DNA from: an uncultured candidate division Zixibacteria bacterium
GTDB taxonomy: Bacteria > Zixibacteria > MSB-5A5 > RBG-16-43-9
NCBI GenBank assembly: GCA_963713865.1
Contig: OY970208.1
Coordinates: 2,464,001-2,528,000, forward strand
Direction: 5' to 3'
DNA length: 64,000 nucleotides
A program made the translations under genes and the position numbers. The notes under the pieces are model-generated. The model made no database searches. It was not told the DNA's origin and was given only the letters and a program-made list of their open reading frames with translations. This document shows positions 24,653 to 63,745 of the stretch, piece after piece. Position 1 is the first letter of the stretch. Each line of letters starts with the position of its first letter.

Positions 24653-24692
24653 TCTTACTCCTTTTTTAAAAGTTTATTTCTTCCTGAACGGA

Positions 24693-25961
24693 TCAATTCT
24701 GGACCATACAAGGATAAATCAATCCTCCCTGTGGCATAATGTAAGCTTTGAAATCCTCCCCGTGCCTGGTTTTAATCTTATCCAGTGCATCTTCCAGGTT
24801 TTCCGCATATTTGAAGAGCCTTTTCTCTAAGAAATCTTTTTTCATAGAGGAGATAACGTAAACCTGATAATTCTTAAGAGTTTTGGAGTTAATCACTGCG
24901 GTGTGACCACCAACCACAATGTCTTTTTCCCTGGTATTCAAAAGCTCATCACAACAGGAAGCATTTGCCAGCCATTTATCAAAGGTATCTGAGCCGATCC
25001 CCTCCCTGGATTCGGTAAGCATCACTACGGTTCCTCCCTCTTTTACCACCTCTTTGGCGTTGTTCATTGTCTTCATAGTTTGATAAAGATTGACGTCCTT
25101 GGGATAACCTCCGGCACTGGCTATAACCGCATCGGCTAAGCAATCGATTTTTACTTTATAAAGCTGATTGCAGGCAGCCACCCCGGCCAGGAAAGCTTCT
25201 TTTAAATCTCCAGCTACTATCTTTACTATTTCCTTTTTATCGTTTATCACCACATTTAGCAGAAAATCTACTCCCGCCCTACGGGCGGCTTCTTCCATTT
25301 CCAGATTTATCGGGTTATCATTAAGCCTGGCAATCCCCACTCCCGGCCTGCATACCATAGCATGGTTTGCCCGGATGGTTTCTCTACCCGCTACTCCAGG
25401 CAGAATCCCTTTTCTACCGCCGGAATACCCTCCGAAATAATGAGTGGTGATAAGTCCGGTCATCACCACTAAGTCAGATTCCTTGATCAGTTTATTTACC
25501 AAAAGCTCGTTCCCGGTAGAAAGATTACCGAAAGATACAAGATCTTTGTCACATTCATGGCTTATCAATTCATAGTTATCAACTATCTCATCCCCGAAAT
25601 TATCCCGATTTTCCTTGTCAGTGTGGGGTCGGTGCGCTCCGGTTCCCACTAAAAAACTGATATCCTCATTTTTTATTCCACCAGCATTTAATTCCTCAAG
25701 AATGGGGATAAGAAAATTATACCCTGGTCGTTTGTAAGGGGTGCCACGGGTGAAATCGCTTACCACAATAACTGCTGTCTTCTTCCTTTTGGCTAATTCG
25801 CTTAATCTTTTACTTTTGATTGGATTCTGTAATGCCTGGATAGCTGACTGGTTAACGTCTGAAAGACCCGGAACTTTTTCCAATTCTAAGACTTTAAGAA
25901 GGTTTTTATCTTGAAGATTTAACTCTTTATAACCATCGCCGTATTTTAGGTTTATTTTCAT
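24693..25961 (-). CDS. larA: LarA-family nickel-pincer-dependent lactate/2-hydroxyacid racemase
   Basis: SDFTR, GTGAHR, HYFGGYSGGRKGILPG, GGYPKDVNLYQTMK. Confidence 0.8.
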   Translation of the reverse strand: MKINLKYGDGYKELNLQDKNLLKVLELEKVPGLSDVNQSAIQALQNPIKSKRLSELAKRKKTAVIVVSDFTRGTPYKRPGYNFLIPILEELNAGGIKNEDISFLVGTGAHRPHTDKENRDNFGDEIVDNYELISHECDKDLVSFGNLSTGNELLVNKLIKESDLVVMTGLITTHYFGGYSGGRKGILPGVAGRETIRANHAMVCRPGVGIARLNDNPINLEMEEAARRAGVDFLLNVVINDKKEIVKIVAGDLKEAFLAGVAACNQLYKVKIDCLADAVIASAGGYPKDVNLYQTMKTMNNAKEVVKEGGTVVMLTESREGIGSDTFDKWLANASCCDELLNTREKDIVVGGHTAVINSKTLKNYQVYVISSMKKDFLEKRLFKYAENLEDALDKIKTRHGEDFKAYIMPQGGLIYPCMVQN

Positions 25962-31146: not shown

Positions 31147-31768
31147 ATTTCTAATCCTCCTTTTCTATCCTCTTCAACGGATTCATTTCAAGATAGGTGC
31201 ATTACCGGATCCGCTTCTTGGATTTAAGAAAATCTATTTCTTTTTATAATAAATAGAATCTCTCAAAAAAGGCAATAGAAATTTGAATTGACCCCAAATA
31301 AAAAAATTAGGTCGGGTAGCTCACCTAATGTTTGGAACCCGGCCTACTCCTCTGGTAGGGGCAATTTCCAGATGGATCCAAATGGACATGAATTGTCCCT
31401 ACACTTTTTCTGCTCCGTCAGGAGCTACTCCTGACGTCCGACCTGTGTTATATGAAAAGCTTCTGACACAACGATTGAAAAACTATAGGAGCGTATTGTC
31501 ATACCCTCCACGCATTACACACTTAATCAGTGCCTTTCAAGTCTCCTGACCTGGCAAACCAAAACTCTGTCGTAAGGTCGGGGGACCTGACGGATACAGC
31601 CTCACCTCTGCGACTTCTTCCGTTGCCACAGGAGTGGCAACGCTACCATCTCCTTAAATAAATGTAGCGGAAGGCTTTAACCTTCCATGTTTTCTTTTCA
31701 ACCTTTGAACCTTTAAACATTTGAACTATATTCTTTATGGAGGTCTAAAGACCTCCTCTTCATAAATA

Positions 31769-35227: not shown

Positions 35228-37894
35228 CTACATCTCTTTCAGCAGTTCTTTGATATCATAATCCTGAAAATTCTCTAACGTCTTTTTATTTAAATCGATT
35301 TTATCTTTTTTCAAATTTAATCTGTAAGAACCAACACGATTATTCTCGATCAGTGGTTTTTCTGAATGAGGAAGTTCTCTTTTCAGACGGTAAATGTACT
35401 TCCCTTGGTTATCCCCTTCCTCCAAATCCAGTTTATGAATCCAGCCATCCTCCTTTTTAAAAACTGCCCAGGCTAATTTGAATAAATATCTGAAACTTTT
35501 ATGGCTGAGCAGAAACCTTCTGCCATTTAGAATAATCGTATATTTCCCCTTAACCAAACTTCCATCTAAAATAAGTTTGCTTTTGGTAGAATCTCTTTTC
35601 CAGAAATTGAAGGTAGGGGCGTATTGCCTTACAACCCTACCAATTTTCCCGGACTCTTGAAGCTTTATCTCTTCTTTTAGCTTGATACCCACCTTTTCAG
35701 GAATTATATTTTTCAACTCCTCTAATTTTATTTCCTTAATCTGGTTTTTAGAGGTAATTCCTTTCAGAGATAGTTTCCAGAGAAAATTTCGTCCCAACCC
35801 TGAGACCTTTAATTTTGCTATTTCAATCATATCCTGACCTATCCCAAACTGAACTTGCCATGCTAAATTCTTTAAAATCTTTTCCAATCCCTCCCCGCAA
35901 TTCAAAATCCGGGCAATGGCAGAGGTAGAATCTAAAAGCCAGGCAAGCTCCTGGGCAATCTGGGAGATAAAACCACTTCTCAGACCATATTCATTTTCTA
36001 AATCATATAGAGGAGCAGGAGTTATCCAGTCACAGAAAAACAAAGAAAGTTTAAGCCTGGAAAGCTGCCTGGAGGATAACTGTCCACTTGAGATGGATAA
36101 AAACTCTTTTAACCTTTGCTCTGAGATACTATCCTGAGTAAATCTTCCTTTTAGTTTTTCTTGATAAACCCTGTTCTCTATTTCATGAAAAGTAAGAGGC
36201 GTATAAATCCTTTCACCATCTTTAGTCTTAAGAAGTTCATAAAACCAGCCCAATGGGTCTCCGATTGGATCCATTGTGAACAAATTCGGATTAACCGGTT
36301 CGGATGAGCTTTCTTTTTCCAGTTTTCTCTTGATCGCCAAGCCAGTTTCAATTTTTATCCCCTGGATAGATATGACTTTCCCCAAAGCAGTTACATAAAG
36401 GGCACCTTTTTCATCTGAGGTTAATATATTTTCCTCAATCAATTTTGAAATATTTTCATTTATACCATTTTGATCTCGATTTATAACGTCAGCTGAAAAG
36501 GTGTTGGCTAAATACTTTCTCAACCCTGCAGAATCCTTAGCCAGGCCCGAGGATACCAGGTCGAGGATGACATCCTCTAAATCTATTTTATCCAGAACCG
36601 GAATCAGCTTTTCTTCCTTGCCTTCGACATACTTATCCCAGAGTGAATCGAAATGAAACTGGTTACCTGCTAAAAGAACTGACCTGCCAAACTCTTTTTC
36701 CAGACCGAATCTTCCAGCTCTTCCGGACATATTCTCATATTCATTCCAGGTTAAGGGAACCATAACCCCTTTGTCGGTAAACTCGCCGCTTTCATATTTC
36801 AAGGTTTCTATAAAAACCGTCCTGGCTGGGAGATTTACCCCCATGGCTAAGGTGCTGGTTGCAAATACCAGTTTAATCTCTTTTTCAAGATAGGAATGTT
36901 CGACTAAACCCCTTTCTTCATAGGTTAAATCAGCATTATGGAATGCAATCCCTTTTTGGAGGCAGAATTCTAACTTTTCCTTAAGGCTGGTAACTTCAAG
37001 CTCAGCTAACTTCTCTAACACTTCGGAGGCAGGTTCTCCTTTGAACTCATCTGCAAATAGAATAGCCATCTTGATAGTCTCATTTCTGCTTTTCAGGAAG
37101 ACTAAAACCTGTTCTCCTTTCTCTAAGAGCATCTGGAGATTGGGAAATAGAATTTTTTCTATTTCTTCGCTTTCAACTTCTATGAATTTCTCCTCTCCTT
37201 CTTCCTGAGAGTTATATTCTTTATAAGTAAATATTCCTTTATATAGAATCCCCTGTAAAAGCTCAACCGGTCTCTTTTTCTCTAAAAGGTACTTGCATCC
37301 CAGCCAGGAAGCTAATCTCTCTACCTCCCCCAAGACTGCAGATAAGCCAATAATCTGTGGTTTGTATCCGGAATTCAGAACTTTGAGCAAAGCCAACTCC
37401 AAAACCTGACCCCGTGAGCTGTCTCCGATCATCTGTAACTCATCTATGATCAAAAGGTCTATGTTCCTCAGTAAGTCTAAGTTTTTAAGCAGCAGTTGAT
37501 TGAACTTTTCATATATCATAATACCTAAATCGAAATCACCTTTTTCCAAATCTGAATCAAACTCCCTTCTGTCTTTTGTAGATATAACTATCTTTATCCC
37601 TAAATTTGAATATTTAGTTTGAAAATCTGAAAACTTCTCCTCGGCAATTGCCTTAAGCGGAACCAGATAAACTGTCTTTTTTCGTCTAAAAATAGAACTG
37701 ATAGCCGCCATTTCTCCACAGAATGTCTTTCCGGAAGAAGTAGGGGCTGAGATTATCAGACTCTCCCCATTTAAAAGATTAAAACGCGTAACTGCTGATG
37801 ATTGTAAAGGTAATAACTTTTCCCCCTGACTTTCTTCCCAGGTCTTGATAATACTTTCCGGGATACCATATTTTAATAATTTTTTAACTTCCAT
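35228..37894 (-). CDS. Ski2/Hel308-like SF2 helicase with an extra C-terminal domain
   Basis: APTSSGKT, VPLKAIAEEK, IIDELQ, GLSA, GIAFHNADL, TSTLAMGVNLPA, MSGRAGR, HhH-like VSGLGR. Confidence 0.88.
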   Translation of the reverse strand: MEVKKLLKYGIPESIIKTWEESQGEKLLPLQSSAVTRFNLLNGESLIISAPTSSGKTFCGEMAAISSIFRRKKTVYLVPLKAIAEEKFSDFQTKYSNLGIKIVISTKDRREFDSDLEKGDFDLGIMIYEKFNQLLLKNLDLLRNIDLLIIDELQMIGDSSRGQVLELALLKVLNSGYKPQIIGLSAVLGEVERLASWLGCKYLLEKKRPVELLQGILYKGIFTYKEYNSQEEGEEKFIEVESEEIEKILFPNLQMLLEKGEQVLVFLKSRNETIKMAILFADEFKGEPASEVLEKLAELEVTSLKEKLEFCLQKGIAFHNADLTYEERGLVEHSYLEKEIKLVFATSTLAMGVNLPARTVFIETLKYESGEFTDKGVMVPLTWNEYENMSGRAGRFGLEKEFGRSVLLAGNQFHFDSLWDKYVEGKEEKLIPVLDKIDLEDVILDLVSSGLAKDSAGLRKYLANTFSADVINRDQNGINENISKLIEENILTSDEKGALYVTALGKVISIQGIKIETGLAIKRKLEKESSSEPVNPNLFTMDPIGDPLGWFYELLKTKDGERIYTPLTFHEIENRVYQEKLKGRFTQDSISEQRLKEFLSISSGQLSSRQLSRLKLSLFFCDWITPAPLYDLENEYGLRSGFISQIAQELAWLLDSTSAIARILNCGEGLEKILKNLAWQVQFGIGQDMIEIAKLKVSGLGRNFLWKLSLKGITSKNQIKEIKLEELKNIIPEKVGIKLKEEIKLQESGKIGRVVRQYAPTFNFWKRDSTKSKLILDGSLVKGKYTIILNGRRFLLSHKSFRYLFKLAWAVFKKEDGWIHKLDLEEGDNQGKYIYRLKRELPHSEKPLIENNRVGSYRLNLKKDKIDLNKKTLENFQDYDIKELLKEM

Positions 37895-38461: not shown

Positions 38462-38628
38462 TCAAATCTGAGGTACTGGTAGGCCTCGAGATAAAACTAG
38501 TTCTGCCTCCGGCAATATGCGAACAATGCTCTCTTCTGTAAATCGATGCCGACCCATATTATCCTCTTTCCTCAGTCCAGTTTAATGTACTAACTTCTAA
38601 GCTGGACCGAAATATGGGGGGCAGGTCA
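38462..38628 (-). mobile_element. IS3-family (IS407-like) remnant: left end and truncated orfA
   Basis: Terminus TGACCTGCCCCCCATATTTCGGTCCAG, then RBS and MGRHRFTEESIVRILPEAELVLSRGLPVPQI* (38557-38462), resembling IS3 OrfA N-termini. Confidence 0.7.
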
Positions 38629-45670: not shown

Positions 45671-47212
45671 TTACGCTTTAAACCTATCGGTAATCTCTTC
45701 TTCCTCATCTACAGAGAAGACCTTAAACTCATCTGCAGATAAATTCTCATCCTTTTCTGGCAGGATTTCTATTCTCAACATCCGGCACAGCTTTTTTATC
45801 CTGCTCTCTTTCCCTTCAGATAAGATCCGATAAACTTCTGGATGAATACAAAGCTTGAATTTTTTATCCACGGAGCGAACTTTTGCTCTTTTGAACCATC
45901 TTTCAATTTTGGCTGCCAAGGTTTCCTTGGATAAAACCCTGCCAATTCCGTTACAGGTGGGACAGGGCTGGCTGAAAGTATAAAGCAGGCTGGGTCTTAT
46001 CCTCTCCCTTGTCATCTCGACCAGTCCAAAATCTGATATGGGAAGGATGCTATGTTTTGAGCGGTCATTTTTAAATGAGGCTTTGAATTCCTCAAAAACT
46101 TTCTTCCGATTTTCAAAAGATTCCATATCGATAAAATCGACAATTATCAGTCCCCCTATATCTCTGAGTCTTATCTGACGGGCTATCTCCCGGGAAGCTT
46201 CTAAATTAGTCTTCAAGATAGTGGTCTGCTGGTCTGACTTTCCTACAAATCTGCCGGTATTAACGTCGATAGTAACCATAGCTTCAGTCTGATCGATGAC
46301 TATATACGCACCCTTTCTTAACCAGACCCTTCGATCTAACATTTTTTCAATCTGGCTTTCAATATTGTAGAAATCGAATATCGGTATATCCTTATCATAA
46401 AGGATTACCTTCTGTCTGAGACCAGGTGCTATCACCTGTAGATATGAGCGTATTTTTTTGTACTCCCACTTAGAATCGATCATCACCTGATTAACCTCAG
46501 ATGATAGCTGATCCCGGATCACTCTGGCAACCAGCCCCATATCCTTATGCACCAGTGCCGGAGCCTTTTTTTTCTCCGCCTCCCTTCTTATCTTTTTCCA
46601 TAAATTCAAAAGAAGCCGGATATCATTTTTAAATTCTTTCTGATTTTTCCCTTCAGCCACAGTGCGTATAATCGCACCAAACCCCTCTGGTTTTAGCTCT
46701 GAGACTACTCTTTTCAGCCTTTTTTTCTCTTCACGCTCAATTATCTTTCTGGATACCCCTATATGCTCTTCCCCGGGAACTAATACCAGATATCTTCCAG
46801 CTAAAGAAAGTTGTGAGGTAACCTTAGGTCCTTTAGTACCCATCTGCTCTTTCATTATCTGAACCAGAATTTCCTGCCCTTTTTTCAAAAGCTCCTCAAT
46901 CTTTTGTGGGGCTTTCTTTTTCTTTCTCTGGGCTAACTCCTCCTCTTCCAGGAAATCTGCTTCATACAACTCGGTGATGTCCGAGATATGTAAAAAAGCA
47001 CTCCTTTCCAGACCAAGATCTAAAAATGCTGCTTGCATCCCTGGAAGTACTGCCTTAACTATCCCCTTGTAAATATCCCCCACTATCCTTTCACTTTCAG
47101 GCCTTTCAACCCAGAGCTCCATCAATTTAGAATTTTCTAAAACCGCAATCCGGGTTTCAAATTCCGATGAGTTAATTATAATATCTTTCTGCAACTTAAT
47201 CTCTCCTGTCAT
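45671..47212 (-). CDS. rng: Ribonuclease E/G family
   Basis: S1 domain (VLPGMQAAF), IDVNTG, QIRLRDIGGLIIVDFIDM, CPTCNG. Confidence 0.9.
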   Translation of the reverse strand: MTGEIKLQKDIIINSSEFETRIAVLENSKLMELWVERPESERIVGDIYKGIVKAVLPGMQAAFLDLGLERSAFLHISDITELYEADFLEEEELAQRKKKKAPQKIEELLKKGQEILVQIMKEQMGTKGPKVTSQLSLAGRYLVLVPGEEHIGVSRKIIEREEKKRLKRVVSELKPEGFGAIIRTVAEGKNQKEFKNDIRLLLNLWKKIRREAEKKKAPALVHKDMGLVARVIRDQLSSEVNQVMIDSKWEYKKIRSYLQVIAPGLRQKVILYDKDIPIFDFYNIESQIEKMLDRRVWLRKGAYIVIDQTEAMVTIDVNTGRFVGKSDQQTTILKTNLEASREIARQIRLRDIGGLIIVDFIDMESFENRKKVFEEFKASFKNDRSKHSILPISDFGLVEMTRERIRPSLLYTFSQPCPTCNGIGRVLSKETLAAKIERWFKRAKVRSVDKKFKLCIHPEVYRILSEGKESRIKKLCRMLRIEILPEKDENLSADEFKVFSVDEEEEITDRFKA

Positions 47213-47276
47213 ATCTACCTGACTTTAGTCAGGTAGGTTTTATGCCCCGCCACAGCGGGATTGTTAATTGTGCCAT

Positions 47277-48065
47277 TCAAACTCTTCCATTCCGGATGAT
47301 ATGTAAGGCTTTTTCTATTTTTTCTAAATCCACCCTGGTATTCATACAGGGTCCAAAGGGACGTTTATTTAAAATTCCATAAACTGGAATAGGATAAACA
47401 TCCTGAATCCCGCTGGTCAAATCTCTTTCACAGGCAACCGCCACAATCACCGTCGGTCTTTTCTCCACTATCACCTTACGAGCCAGGGTTCCGCCGGTTG
47501 CAATCGAAAGAGGAGTATAGTATTTATCTCCCAATTCGATTATCTGACTGATCTGGCATTTGCCGCACATTCGGCAGTTGCGGTAATCCGTGGTAACTTT
47601 TTGCGGACAATCGTAATTCTGCAGACAGTGAGAAAGAAGAATCAAAATTCGCTCCGGGTTAATCCTCTTCCTGGTGGCATTGAACAGGGAATTATTAACC
47701 GCCACAAATGATTGTCTGATCTGGTCCTTTGACCATCCGAAAAGTCTGCTTAAAATTAGATTAATCGGGAAAAGAATTTTCAAGGTAATCTGTTTTTCAC
47801 CATGCGGGAAAAGAAAATCTTTTTCAGTTAAGGCCGATAAAATTATCAGGAAAAGACCACCGCTTATTATTGCCAGACCTATCCCCAGGAAGAGCTTCAC
47901 TCCTAAAGACAGGTATGGATTCAGACTACCCAGGCGGGGAGAAACTAAATACCAGAATCCGATTACCATAAGGACTAACACCAGAAGACTTAAAATCGAG
48001 AGAAATAAAAAAATACCTTTACCCTTGTTTTCATTGCTGGCTATTCGATATTCGCTGTTCGACAT
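47277..48065 (-). CDS. DUF116 family membrane protein
   Basis: SHCLQ, CRMCGKC, ATGGT, VACERDL, GPCMNT. Confidence 0.85.
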   Translation of the reverse strand: MSNSEYRIASNENKGKGIFLFLSILSLLVLVLMVIGFWYLVSPRLGSLNPYLSLGVKLFLGIGLAIISGGLFLIILSALTEKDFLFPHGEKQITLKILFPINLILSRLFGWSKDQIRQSFVAVNNSLFNATRKRINPERILILLSHCLQNYDCPQKVTTDYRNCRMCGKCQISQIIELGDKYYTPLSIATGGTLARKVIVEKRPTVIVAVACERDLTSGIQDVYPIPVYGILNKRPFGPCMNTRVDLEKIEKALHIIRNGRV

Positions 48066-48142
48066 TTGATATTCGCTTTTAGCTTTTTGAACTTTTTTTC
48101 AGCTACTTGCTACCAGCTACTTGCTTTTTTGACTTTTGCCTT

Positions 48143-49117
48143 TTAACCCAGCTTCTCCCCAATTTCTATCCTGTATCCTCTCAAAAACTCTTCAGCTTCA
48201 AGTTTTTTCTTACCTTCCAATTGAAGCTCCTTTAATCTTAAAATACCTTTCTGAGTTTGAACTAATAACCCGCTTTTCTGGTCTGCTTTAATTATTTTCC
48301 CAAACTCTGTTGAAGAGTTCTCATCTATCTCTACTTTAGTTTTATAGACCTTCAATAGTTTACCTCTCAAAAAAGTAAATGCTCCCGGTTGAGGAGAAAG
48401 ACCTCTTATCAGGTTATTTATTTCCTGAGCTGATTTCGACCAGTTGATTCTGCACAACTCTTCAGTTATCTTAGGAGCTAAGCTTACTTCTAAATCATTC
48501 TGAGCATAGGTTCTCACTTCTCTTTTTTCGATCAAGTCTATGGTCTCCAATAAAACTTCTGCTCCAATTATGGAAAGTCTTAAAGAAAGCTCTCCAAAAG
48601 TTTCCTCCGGATATATCTCAACCTCTTTTTGCAAGATAATCCCTCCAGTATCCACTTTCTTCTGGATAAAAAATGTTGTCAGACCGGTAATCTTTTCACC
48701 CTTAATGAGTGCCCAGTTTATCGGGGCAGCCCCTCTGTATTTCGGCAGAAGAGAGGCATGCAGATTGATTGTGCCCGAAGGAGGTAAACTGAAGATTCTC
48801 TCCGGAAGAATCCGGAAAGCTACAACCGTAATCAAATCCGGCTTTAATTCATTAAGAGCTCGATAGAATTCCTCAGATTTCAAATCCTCAGGAGTTAAAA
48901 CTTTTCTTGTGGATCTCCCACTGGATCCATTCTGGACAATTTCGGACAGGTTATGCTTCTCTGCAAATTCTTTCACTGGCGAAGGTAAAAGCTTCAAACC
49001 TCTCCCTCTGGGTTTATCCGGCTGAGTTACTATCCCTGCGATCTGATGCTTACTATTCAAAAGCAGTTCCAGACTGGGCAGGGCAAACTCAGGAGTTCCC
49101 ATAAAAACAATCCGCAT
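48143..49117 (-). CDS. fmt: Methionyl-tRNA formyltransferase with a 14-aa in-frame insertion
   Basis: FMGTPEFA, VTQPD, NLHASLLPKYRGAAPI. Confidence 0.96.
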   Translation of the reverse strand: MRIVFMGTPEFALPSLELLLNSKHQIAGIVTQPDKPRGRGLKLLPSPVKEFAEKHNLSEIVQNGSSGRSTRKVLTPEDLKSEEFYRALNELKPDLITVVAFRILPERIFSLPPSGTINLHASLLPKYRGAAPINWALIKGEKITGLTTFFIQKKVDTGGIILQKEVEIYPEETFGELSLRLSIIGAEVLLETIDLIEKREVRTYAQNDLEVSLAPKITEELCRINWSKSAQEINNLIRGLSPQPGAFTFLRGKLLKVYKTKVEIDENSSTEFGKIIKADQKSGLLVQTQKGILRLKELQLEGKKKLEAEEFLRGYRIEIGEKLG

Positions 49118-49264
49118 ATTTTTCGTTATTCGCTTTTCGCTATTGGCTTTTCGCTGTTTGTTTTTTAATATTCTTTTTAAGTTACTTGCTATTCCACCTT
49201 TGAACTATTGAACTTTTGAACCCTTGAACTTTTTAGCATTCAGCCTTTAGACTATAGACTATTT

Positions 49265-49771
49265 TTATCTTTCTTCTGAGATTTTTCTCAATTTTTTTCC
49301 TAAGAGTGTCCTTTTAATAGTGCTGAGATGGTCAATGAACAAAACGCCGTTCAGATGATCAATCTCGTGTAATAAAGCCCTACTCAAAAGCCCTTCTCCT
49401 TCAATCTCGACTTTATTCCCGGATAAATTCAAACCTCTTACTTTAACTTTACGTGCCCTGGTCACATTCTCATAGATCCCAGGAGCTGAAAGACATCCTT
49501 CCTCAATTACCTGCTCCTCTGAAGACTCAATTAATTCCGGATTGAGCATAATTACCGGTTCTTCTTCTCCGTCTATATGAATCCGGTCTATCACGAAAAT
49601 CCTTTTGGCAACTCCAACCTGATTAGCCGCCAGCCCGATCCCTTTAATAGACTTCAAAGTCTCCACCATATCCGCGGCTAACTTCTTGATTTCATCATCG
49701 ATAACTGAAATCTCCTCAGCCCTTCTTCTCAATACCGGATTCCCGTATTTTCTCAGCTTTAAAATAGCCAT
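49265..49771 (-). CDS. def: Peptide deformylase
   Basis: GIGLAANQVG, EGCLS, HEIDHLNG. Confidence 0.96.
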   Translation of the reverse strand: MAILKLRKYGNPVLRRRAEEISVIDDEIKKLAADMVETLKSIKGIGLAANQVGVAKRIFVIDRIHIDGEEEPVIMLNPELIESSEEQVIEEGCLSAPGIYENVTRARKVKVRGLNLSGNKVEIEGEGLLSRALLHEIDHLNGVLFIDHLSTIKRTLLGKKLRKISEER

Positions 49772-50001
49772 ACTATCTCGCTTATCGCTTTTAGCCTTTC
49801 GCTATTTGTTTTCTAACCCTGAACTGTTCGTGTTTACCAGGTCTCCTGAGCTGGTAAGTTCAAATCCCCTCTCCTTTTTAAGGAGAGGGTCAGGGTGATG
49901 TTTCCATTTTCGCTATTCGCTGTTCGTTATTCGCCTTTTGAACTTTTTTTCAGCTACTTGCTACCTGCTACCAGCTACATGCTTTTTTGACTTTAGCCTT
50001 A

Positions 50002-50322
50002 TTACTCTCCTTTCTCCACCCTTCCCGCGATAGAGCTTTTAAGAAACTCTATTTTCACTTCATCCGCCACTTTCAAAACTACGACATTTTCCTTCTCATT
50101 GAACCCTATAATTGTACCGAACATCCCTGAGTTAGTTACAACCTTATCCCCTTTTCTAAGGCTCTCTAACATTAGCCTGTGTTCCTTCTGCCTTTTCTGC
50201 TGAGGTCGGATTAAGAGTAAATAAAATACACCAATAATCAAAATCCAGGGTAGCCAGAGCAATATCCCTCCACTACTCTGTTGTCCGCCTTGTGTCCCCA
50301 TAGCATAAACGGATTCAAACAT
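50002..50322 (-). CDS. yajC: Preprotein translocase subunit YajC
   Basis: FYLLLIRPQQK, GDKVVT; follows tgt. Confidence 0.92.
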   Translation of the reverse strand: MFESVYAMGTQGGQQSSGGILLWLPWILIIGVFYLLLIRPQQKRQKEHRLMLESLRKGDKVVTNSGMFGTIIGFNEKENVVVLKVADEVKIEFLKSSIAGRVEKGE

Positions 50323-50489
50323 TTTTACTCCTTTCGAGTAAGTTTAAATTTTTTACGCATCCAAATCTTCTTTCTTTGTGAATAATTCGGCGGGCAAGGT
50401 TGCCCGCTCTACGAAAGAGTAATTGATTAGACGTCGTAGGCAGGGCTCCCGACCCTGCTAATTTAAGTTTTTTAGAGACCCTGTAAAAT

Positions 50490-51641
50490 CTATTGAGTCT
50501 CTTCTCCTTTTGAATTCGAAGATTTATACTCCTCTAAAAATTGTTTCCTCCATTTTGTGAAAAATCCTTGCATAATCGACTCTCTTATCTCTCTCATCAG
50601 GCTAAGATAAAAATGTAAGGAGTGAATGGTAGCCAATCTCAGCCCGGCTATTTCCCCGCTTTGAAAAAGGTGTCTTAAATAAGCACGGGAATAATTCTTA
50701 CAAGCCAGACAGTCACAATTTTCATCTATGGGAGTGAAATCCTCCGCATACCTGGCAGCTTTGATAATCATCTTCCCCTTGCGAGTAAAGATCGTTCCGT
50801 TACGTGCATTTCTGGTAGGCAGAACGCAATCGAACATATCCACTCCGACAGAAACCCCTTCCACAATATCCTCCGGAGTGCCCACTCCCATTAAATATCT
50901 GGGCTTATCCTCCGGCAAATATTTTAGAGTTTGATCAACGATCTCCAGCCTCATATCTTTAGGTTCTCCCACTGAAAGACCGCCTAAAGCCAGCCCTGAG
51001 AAGTCCAGATCTACCATAAAACTGGCACACAGCTCCCTGAGGTTCGGATAAATCCCGCCTTGAATTATTCCGAAAAGAGTTTGCTTTTCTTTTTTCTCAT
51101 TTTTTTCATGCTCGAATTTAGACCTTTTTGCCCAGTCCATGGTGAATTCAGTTGCTCTTCTGGTAAAAGGATAGGAAGAGGGGTAAGGGACGCATTCATC
51201 TAAAGGCATAATGATATCCGCACCCAACGAATGTTGTATCTCTATAACCTTTTCCGGAGTGAACTGATGAGAAGAACCATCCAAATAAGATTTAAAACTA
51301 ACCCCTTCCTCAGATACTTTAGCTAAGGGATTCAAACTAAAAACCTGATACCCTCCGCTATCCGTTAGCATAGGTTTTTTCCAGCTCATAAAACTATGCA
51401 GCCCCCCAGCTCTCTCAATTAATTTATGTCCGGGTCGGAGATATAGATGATAGGTATTACCCAGGATTAGCTCCGCCCCTAAATCTTCCATCTCTTTTGA
51501 GCACAGGGTCTTGATTGAAGCCTGAGTTCCCACTGGCATAAAAACCGGGGTGTTTATCTCTCCATGCGGGGTATCCAGCCAGCCTGCCCGGGCAGAAGAT
51601 TCTTCATCCTTTTTTACAATCTTAAAATCGAAACTATTCAA
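50490..51641 (-). CDS. tgt: Queuine tRNA-ribosyltransferase
   Basis: TPVFMPVGT, NTYHL, DSGGYQ, PRYLMGVG, DMFDCV, CxCxxC. Confidence 0.96.
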   Translation of the reverse strand: MNSFDFKIVKKDEESSARAGWLDTPHGEINTPVFMPVGTQASIKTLCSKEMEDLGAELILGNTYHLYLRPGHKLIERAGGLHSFMSWKKPMLTDSGGYQVFSLNPLAKVSEEGVSFKSYLDGSSHQFTPEKVIEIQHSLGADIIMPLDECVPYPSSYPFTRRATEFTMDWAKRSKFEHEKNEKKEKQTLFGIIQGGIYPNLRELCASFMVDLDFSGLALGGLSVGEPKDMRLEIVDQTLKYLPEDKPRYLMGVGTPEDIVEGVSVGVDMFDCVLPTRNARNGTIFTRKGKMIIKAARYAEDFTPIDENCDCLACKNYSRAYLRHLFQSGEIAGLRLATIHSLHFYLSLMREIRESIMQGFFTKWRKQFLEEYKSSNSKGEETQ

Positions 51642-62439: not shown

Positions 62440-63066
62440 TTATGTCTTGATATAAGCACGATTATCTTTTACCTCTACTCTGCTTTCAGCAAAAAGTTGA
62501 ATCGCCTCTTTATAGGTTTGATGTTCCACTTTAAGGACTCTTTCAGCTAAACTTTCTGGAGTATCATCATCTTTAACTTCCACTGGCTTTTGTATTACAA
62601 TTGCACCATGATCATAGACCTCATCCACAATGTGGACAGTTACTCCAGTGATTTTCACCCCCGATTTTATCACCGCCTCGTGCACGTGAATACCATACAT
62701 TCCTGGTCCCCCAAAATGAGGAAGTAGTGCCGGATGGATATTCAGGATTCTATTTTTATAAGCCCGGATAATTACAGGAGAAAGTATTTTCATATACCCG
62801 GCTAAGACCACCATATCTATCTGATTTTCTTTTAAAACTTCAAGCAGCCTCTGGTCGAACTCCTCGAGAGTAGTAAACTGTTTATGGCTCAGATGCAAAG
62901 CCGGGATATTATGATTTTTAGCTCTCTCTAAGGCAAAAGCTTTACTGTTATTACTGATAACTATCTTAATCTCAGCTAATAGCTCTCCCCTTTCTATCGC
63001 ATCAATCAAAGCTTGAAGATTCGTCCCTCCACCTGAACAAAGGATTGCTAAGTTCAGTTTTTTCAT
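62440..63066 (-). CDS. purN: Phosphoribosylglycinamide formyltransferase PurN
   Basis: SGGGTNLQA, LAGYM, NIHPALLP. Confidence 0.95.
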   Translation of the reverse strand: MKKLNLAILCSGGGTNLQALIDAIERGELLAEIKIVISNNSKAFALERAKNHNIPALHLSHKQFTTLEEFDQRLLEVLKENQIDMVVLAGYMKILSPVIIRAYKNRILNIHPALLPHFGGPGMYGIHVHEAVIKSGVKITGVTVHIVDEVYDHGAIVIQKPVEVKDDDTPESLAERVLKVEHQTYKEAIQLFAESRVEVKDNRAYIKT

Positions 63067-63190: not shown

Positions 63191-63745
63191 TCAAAAACTT
63201 AATAACTCAGTGTCAACTTTAATTATTGAATGGTCATTCAAAATATAATTTCTGGCACTAGAATATCGATAATCCTCAGGTTTCTCTACTAATCCTTCTT
63301 TGCCCGGATTATTATGGATATAGTCTATTTTAGTTCTTAATATCTTAGGACTATAGACACCTAAATCATCATATCCTAGTTGCCAGATTTGATATTCCCA
63401 ATTCTTTTTCTTGGGTTCTTCTAATCTAAATAATTTCAACCAATTTATTCTCTTGTCTTTCTCCATCTGCTCACGCAATTTCCTAGCTGTAAATATTTTA
63501 AAGTCTTCTATAATTTTAGAAATTTCTTTTACTCTTTCCTGGTCTGGATAAATCAACAAATGAATATGATCTGGCATAACTACGTAGGCAATCAGCTTAA
63601 AAGCATACTTTTCTCTATAAAAGCTAATATTCTCTAAAATTATATCAATATATTTTTTCTCTTTGAAAATCTTGACAAATTTATTAACGCTTGTTGTGAT
63701 AAAATAACTATTACCTTCGAAATATTTCCTGCCTCTTAAAGGCAT
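63191..63745 (-). mobile_element. REP-associated tyrosine transposase (RAYT/TnpA-REP, Y1 HUH family)
   Basis: YFITTSV, YVVMPDHIHLL (HUH), IWQ, YIHNNP, YRYSSA; start set at ATG 63745; REPs on both sides. Confidence 0.88.

Follow-up and report, generated by a model that had tools for sequence, protein, structure and literature searches.

The window, by which we mean the whole 64,000-nucleotide stretch analysed here, carries on its minus strand, at 48143–49117, an open reading frame of 324 amino acids that corresponds to fmt, the gene for methionyl-tRNA formyltransferase (positions refer to the window unless marked 'genome'; G000 denotes the window's own genome, and G001 and G002 its congeners). 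Both Pfam domains of the enzyme are recognized in the product (Formyl_trans_N, E = 8.3e-39; Formyl_trans_C, E = 2.4e-31), and its best PDB matches are Fmt chains, down to E = 5.7e-65. From the translations we read the neighbourhood as apparently ordinary, with def upstream and DUF116-like and RNase E/G-like genes downstream, and a search of Rfam gave no match within 47000–51000. We found no further Fmt of full length in G000; the only other formyltransferase-like match there (62473–62856, minus strand), which shows 29% identity to Fmt and lies in an open frame of 213 residues, is probably PurN-like rather than a spare Fmt.

Within fmt, positions 48905–48946 hold a 42-bp composite micro-element that on the minus strand reads TCCGAAATTG[TCCAGAATGGATCCAGTGGGA]GATCCACAAGA and is translated as SEIVQNGSSGRSTR, residues 58–71 of the product, placed between KHNL and KVLTP. 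The inner 21 bp (TCCAGAATGGATCCAGTGGGA; 48916–48936, minus strand) agree at 19 of 21 positions with TCCAGAATGGATCCATTCGGA, a near-palindromic 21-mer recurrent elsewhere in G000 that serves as the consensus of an element we call A. The outer 21 bp, divided into a left part of 10 nt (TCCGAAATTG; 48937–48946, minus strand) and a right part of 11 nt (GATCCACAAGA; 48905–48915, minus strand), match the left and right halves of copies of a second element, B (consensus TCCGAATTTGGATCCGTAGGA); a whole B copy that the left 10 nt match lies, for example, at genome 118264 and reads TCCGAATTTGGATCCGTAGGA. The two elements have a common layout, TCC - spacer - GGATCC - spacer - GGA. The inner 21-mer occurs a single time in the window at up to three mismatches, where none is expected, scores 33.0 bits on a weight matrix for A, and is identical across G000, G001 and G002; the right 11 nt of the outer unit read GATCCATAGGA in both congeners, in which the insert peptide is SEFVQNGSSGRSIG.

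A lineage-specific insertion in Fmt

We compared 30 fmt loci, one each from 30 related genomes. The 14 codons are present in the three genomes of the same genus (G000–G002) and absent from all 27 other relatives, whose Fmt has about 310 codons against 324 and whose helix end runs directly into KVLTP-like sequence, leaving the clean 14-residue gap that the original prediction, made from the sequence, had expected in Fmt orthologues. The same gap, of 13–14 residues in a residue-level alignment, appears at the insert point in three solved Fmt chains (4iqf, 3tqq and 1fmt), and among 80 metagenome Fmt homologues, all of them distant (at most 53% identity), 78 have no residue in the 14 insert columns and two have one. 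A loop of similar length in distant orthologues, which had been named in advance as the observation that would count against an insertion, was thus found neither in the solved structures nor in the 80 metagenome homologues. The fmt insert is a lineage-specific insertion.

Nor is it an artefact of assembly, since three independent assemblies contain it and the contigs of two further public runs cross the whole fmt stretch with 0 gaps. In the contigs of four public runs there was no joint skipping 21 or 42 bp at fmt; contigs drop rare variants, so rare empty alleles may still exist. All genomes and contigs of the genus that we examined have the composite, with neither a B-alone allele nor an empty site among them. 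Contigs of the runs X1 and X2 carry a different base at 48921, inside the inner unit and one step nearer to canonical A, and a separate contig with uvrC-like flanks retains the window's base at the matching position.

An AlphaFold2 model of Fmt, built from the 30-sequence alignment, has a mean pLDDT of 88.3 and a pTM of 0.86; residues 60–70 form the only stretch with pLDDT below 50 and lie between a helix (47–54) and a strand (72–74), as would be expected had the insert become a surface loop, the possibility raised with the original prediction. In Rossmann-type folds, helix-to-strand turns point away from the substrate side. N118, H120 and D156, which we take to be the catalytic residues of the formyltransferase site, are invariant across the 30 sequences; together with the lack of a second full-length Fmt in G000, this suggests, at the level of sequence, that fmt still encodes a functional enzyme. 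Between G000 and its congeners there are three differences within the insert (I/F, T/I and R/G), and all three alter the amino acid, so that, small as the numbers are, the peptide seems only weakly constrained. Where a canonical A copy would give Ile-Arg, the variant in fmt encodes Ser-Gly.

Two dispersed families of 21-bp elements

Plain k-mer counts along the fmt insert showed no striking excess, and the A family came to light through 12-mer contexts. At up to three mismatches, A has 10 strand matches in G000 and 23 in each of G001 and G002, 4–9 in three genomes of a neighbouring genus (G006–G008) and 1–2 in five genomes of another family; a reversed-pattern control gave none, except for one match in G019. 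With the weight matrix, 27 strand matches in G000 reach at least 14 bits, compared with two in reversed-genome controls. In a genome collection covering 185,579 species the exact 21-mer occurs at 24 loci, all within six assemblies of this lineage, four titled Zixibacteria or Zixiibacteriota and two uncultured Ignavibacteria; exact copies are present in G016 and G026, from a second family of the same order. Folded as single-stranded DNA, A forms a weak hairpin (-3.7 kcal/mol, z = -1.6). The fmt copy does not fold (z = -0.55), its hairpin symmetry having been lost, and for that reason this copy may now be immobile. Canonical A has no stop in any of its six frames.

Elsewhere in the window, a degenerate A-like copy lies at 24683–24703 (minus strand; 17.3 bits on the A matrix), with no ORF of at least 150 amino acids over it. 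A weak one (31366–31386, plus strand) sits in the loop of a GTAG-type hairpin repeat, where the flanks gtaggggcaat...attgtccctac make the host hairpin; its score is 12.5 bits, at which the reversed-genome control also matches. Many A copies occupy loops of GTAG-type hairpin repeats and of a 'ggtcggg...cccgacc' hairpin family (for example at genome 371487, 1431734 and 2194269 of G000). Host hairpin and guest A seem to have been amplified together as whole units, notably in G001 and G002.

Element B gives 44 strand matches of at least 20 bits in G000, against one in the control. At up to three mismatches its pattern is present in 29 of 41 relatives, and the seven genomes that belong to the class but to other orders lack it. 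Copy number is 46 in G001, 44 in G016, 16 in G026 and 0–10 in most other genomes of the two genera to which G016 and G026 belong, so that the loads of G016 and G026 stand high against those of their congeners; this unevenness suggests recent lineage-specific bursts, or else horizontal spread of the element or of its mobilizer. More than half of the strong B copies in G000 (24 of 44) fall within stop-to-stop ORFs of at least 200 amino acids, where the usual reading is S-E-F-G-S-x-G or an equivalent from the reverse strand; canonical B has a stop in one of its forward frames. B has no hairpin arms. Immediately 3' of these 44 copies nAGG is over-represented (34 have G at +4), resembling the AGGA at which B itself ends. 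Such a bias could arise from a preferred target or from host hairpins amplified along with B, and co-amplified host repeats do confound it in part.

Insertions in other genes and the nesting of A in B

Comparison with relatives indicates that these elements have entered many other genes. A second 42-bp composite (36249–36290, minus strand) lies in a helicase-like gene of the window (35231–37894, minus strand), where it is read in another frame, as PNLFTMDPIGDPLG; it is present in G000–G002 and missing from all 11 other relatives aligned. In dapF, G000 and G001 have gained 21 bp of A (SEWIHSG), absent from all seven other loci examined, a count that omits five loci (L043–L047) without the anchor motif. 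A heptosyltransferase-phosphatase gene has a 21-bp A gain (VQNESIW) in G000 only, the site being without it in all 11 others, including both congeners. Four B copies picked from long ORFs proved in every case to be 21-bp insertions relative to outgroup genomes, and for two of the four, degenerate copies occur in one other genus too. Gains in the reverse sense, in G001 or G002 with the site empty in G000, were seen in a MiaB-like gene (21 bp), in a YqeY-like gene (42 bp) and at three intergenic or gene-end sites. In G001 the beginning of murI (L123; G001:C8, about position 38501) has 63 additional bases, apparently three 21-bp units lying one within another, which lengthen the product by 21 residues behind its first codon; the corresponding site in G000 (genome 1403797–1403806) is empty. 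The 14-residue peptide type of the fmt insert is found again in uvrC of G002 and in a membrane protein of G006 and G008. No target duplication was seen at any empty/filled pair compared. At some sites the pattern of presence and absence could reflect precise loss instead of gain. The suggestion that fmt had received a mobile micro-repeat is borne out: both 21-bp units belong to dispersed families whose presence and absence differ between sister species.

The clearest view of how the composite is built comes from uvrC. Its site is empty in all 13 relatives outside the genus; B stands there alone in G000 (SEFGARG) and G001 (SEFGSRG); and in G002 it holds B plus A, with A inserted at G/GATCC, exactly within B. 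Because one site thus shows empty, B-alone and B-plus-A states, nesting is a real stepwise process. In a nucleotidyltransferase gene, likewise, G000 has only B where G002 has the composite, and with these two genes the original reading of the fmt insert, as one element lying inside the G/GATCC of another, is upheld. G001 and G002 are sisters (93.3% nucleotide identity, against 89–90%), which makes a gain of A in uvrC of G002 the shortest account. In the uvrC B copy of G000 the GGATCC has been lost.

The A copy in uvrC of G002 is the ...AGTGGGA variant found in fmt, which no other copy among those listed has; the shared variant suggests a composite of the fmt type as its source, and we infer that A was possibly copied into uvrC through the 10–11 bp of B flank that the two sites share. 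Copies of the entire 42-bp composite occupy 13 places in six genomes, with unrelated flanks and with ends at exactly TCC and GGA. As it recurs as a unit, the fmt insert may have come ready-made, in one step rather than two; arrival of the composite and arrival of B followed by A both fit the data.

Origin, movement and relation to known repeats

Our reading, which we consider quite probable, is that fmt holds a single copy, 42 bp long, of a composite formed by two gene-less mobile micro-elements of 21 bp. The composite would have arrived there a single time, in the ancestor shared by the species of this Zixibacteria genus, whether ready-made or as B and then A, at a helix-to-strand turn of the N-terminal Rossmann-type domain. 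Since each unit is seven codons long and is read in a stop-free frame, fmt remains open and is presumably translated, and its product would carry a tolerated, disordered, Ser/Gly-rich surface loop of 14 residues, with both translation and neutrality judged from the sequence. A and B appear to behave as selfish DNA, reaching new sites without target duplication and often entering the loops of other hairpin repeats, and each other; their short length, in-frame position and harmless peptide loops would let them persist within genes. With units also lying in frame inside many housekeeping genes, the wider implication would be that very small selfish DNA adds short loops to conserved proteins.

One might instead suppose that the units are not selfish at all but are DNA signals centred on GGATCC, such as sites for host-protein binding or recombination, that are held by selection, the Fmt peptide being a by-product. 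Such signals would account for the TCC...GGATCC...GGA layout kept in both families, for the identity of the inner 21 bp of fmt in three species that otherwise differ at about 8–10% of sites, and for the exact A copies in the second family of the order (G016 and G026). Against selected signals, copy number is unstable among close relatives (0–10 copies of B in most of one genus, 44 in G016), occupied sites differ between sister species, copies decay (the symmetry of A in fmt and the GGATCC of uvrC in G000 have gone), and other populations have a different base at 48921, within the inner unit. Nor does the genome show any enrichment or avoidance of GGATCC, with 394 occurrences against 387 expected. 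On balance we regard selected signals as an improbable explanation. We give somewhat less weight still to the idea that Fmt keeps the 14-residue loop as an adaptation, for a new contact or regulation, and that the loop's likeness to the repeats is secondary. The loop is kept in frame in three species and in the contigs of other runs, and Ser-Gly in place of the Ile-Arg of canonical A suits a flexible loop; yet every difference in the insert between G000 and its congeners alters the amino acid, pointing to weak constraint, the AlphaFold2 model gives the insert no structure, and a like 14-residue peptide occurs in unrelated proteins (those of uvrC in G002 and the membrane protein of G006 and G008).

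An origin on the spot, by slippage or duplication of neighbouring sequence with the nested parse a coincidence, might be read from short internal direct repeats in the insert (TCCGAAATTG and TCCAGAATGG at a spacing of 10 nt, GATCCA twice at a spacing of 12 nt), but we think it very improbable: the flanking 450 bp contain no source sequence for the insert, matches of 37–42 bp at 12 other places with unrelated flanks contradict a local origin, and the inner unit stands alone in dapF and other genes. An intein or intron in fmt was rejected on size (42 nt), and a BamHI-type cut-and-ligate origin was set aside because GGATCC shows no sign of restriction avoidance and the junctions G/TCC and GGA/GATCC do not fit one.

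For a composite of two mobile micro-elements, the account we prefer, the question becomes what moves them. Our leading candidate is mobilization in trans, as single-stranded DNA, by a Y1 enzyme of the IS200/RAYT type, combined with short-homology copying for the entry of A into B; we hold this to be a doubtful proposal. The window contains a Y1_Tnp match at 63440–63676 (minus strand; G000:C1:2527440–2527676; E = 3.8e-9) that is a candidate for such an enzyme, one of eight matches to this family (PF01797) in G000. The family is present in 39 of 41 relatives regardless of their element load, so that its distribution gives no support to a Y1 mobilizer, and B, not being a hairpin, fits the REP/RAYT model poorly.

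Comparison with described classes of short repeats leads us to set A and B apart from several of them. Miniature inverted-repeat elements (MITEs) have terminal inverted repeats and a target-site duplication and measure 50–500 bp; A and B differ in having TCC/GGA termini only, no target duplication and a length of 21 bp. Closer in size are the small dispersed repeats (SDR), for which we know of no enzyme. SDR4–6 of Nostocaceae are reportedly mobile repeats of 21–27 nt, said in the account attributed to Elhai et al. 2008 (Genome Res 18:1484) to lie mainly between genes. A and B share with them a unit of 21 nt and presence or absence between sister genomes. There is also a parallel to the entry of A into the GGATCC core of B: a passage in PMC5861425 indicates that SDR5 may insert at a short palindrome, HIP1. 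The differences are of phylum, presumably of sequence and, in A and B, the entry into essential genes, with 24 of 44 strong B copies in long ORFs.

For the REP/REPIN-RAYT system we drew the features compared from passages of PMC3116915 and PMC3733652. REPs too are very short dispersed repeats; A forms a hairpin and co-occurs with GTAG-type REPs, often in REP loops, and Y1-family genes are present in the same genomes. REPs have a GTAG or CGTC tag and a hairpin of 20–40 bp, whereas A and B start with TCC and end with GGA, and REPs are extragenic, in contrast to the strong B copies of G000, 24 of 44 of which fall within ORFs of at least 200 amino acids.

Among the closest analogues, along with the SDRs, are the Rickettsia palindromic elements (RPE) to which the original prediction had pointed, and which passages of PMC10969869 describe as gene-less palindromic repeats of about 150 bp that add peptides in frame to unrelated housekeeping genes, the peptide being thought compatible with the fold of the host protein. 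The analogy, including its proviso that the present elements are far shorter, stands: A and B lie in frame within unrelated genes (fmt, dapF, uvrC, helicase, heptosyltransferase, murI and others), as units of only 21 bp. RPEs, however, are confined to Rickettsia and measure about 100–150 bp, whereas A and B, at 21 bp (42 bp as a composite), belong to Zixibacteria and are by description set apart; unlike RPEs, they nest inside each other, and B has no hairpin. A and B lack defining features of the RPE, REP/REPIN and MITE families and therefore fall outside all three, and a limited literature search found no published account of such elements in Zixibacteria or of 21-bp in-frame elements.

It is conceivable, at odds that we put a little short of even, that A and B represent the smallest mobile DNA living mainly inside genes: seven-codon units, adapted by their length, open frames and Ser/Gly-rich readings to survival in coding sequence, that home into each other's GGATCC core, build loops of 14 and 21 residues stepwise and are moved without duplication by a mechanism not yet described. 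The insertions indicate that mobile DNA of 21 bp can colonize essential, conserved genes such as fmt, dapF, uvrC and murI without breaking them, and that nesting can build longer protein loops. The elements thereby offer a concrete and datable source of lineage-specific indels in conserved proteins, and their inserts are natural tolerance maps for loop insertion. Sister genomes with empty, single and double states, together with candidate Y1 enzymes, make this a tractable case for how very small repeats move. There is also a practical warning, in that in marker-gene phylogenies such inserts will resemble strain markers or errors of alignment. If A and B are indeed the smallest class of gene-dwelling mobile DNA, this clade would be carrying out a natural, ongoing peptide-insertion scan of its own essential proteins.
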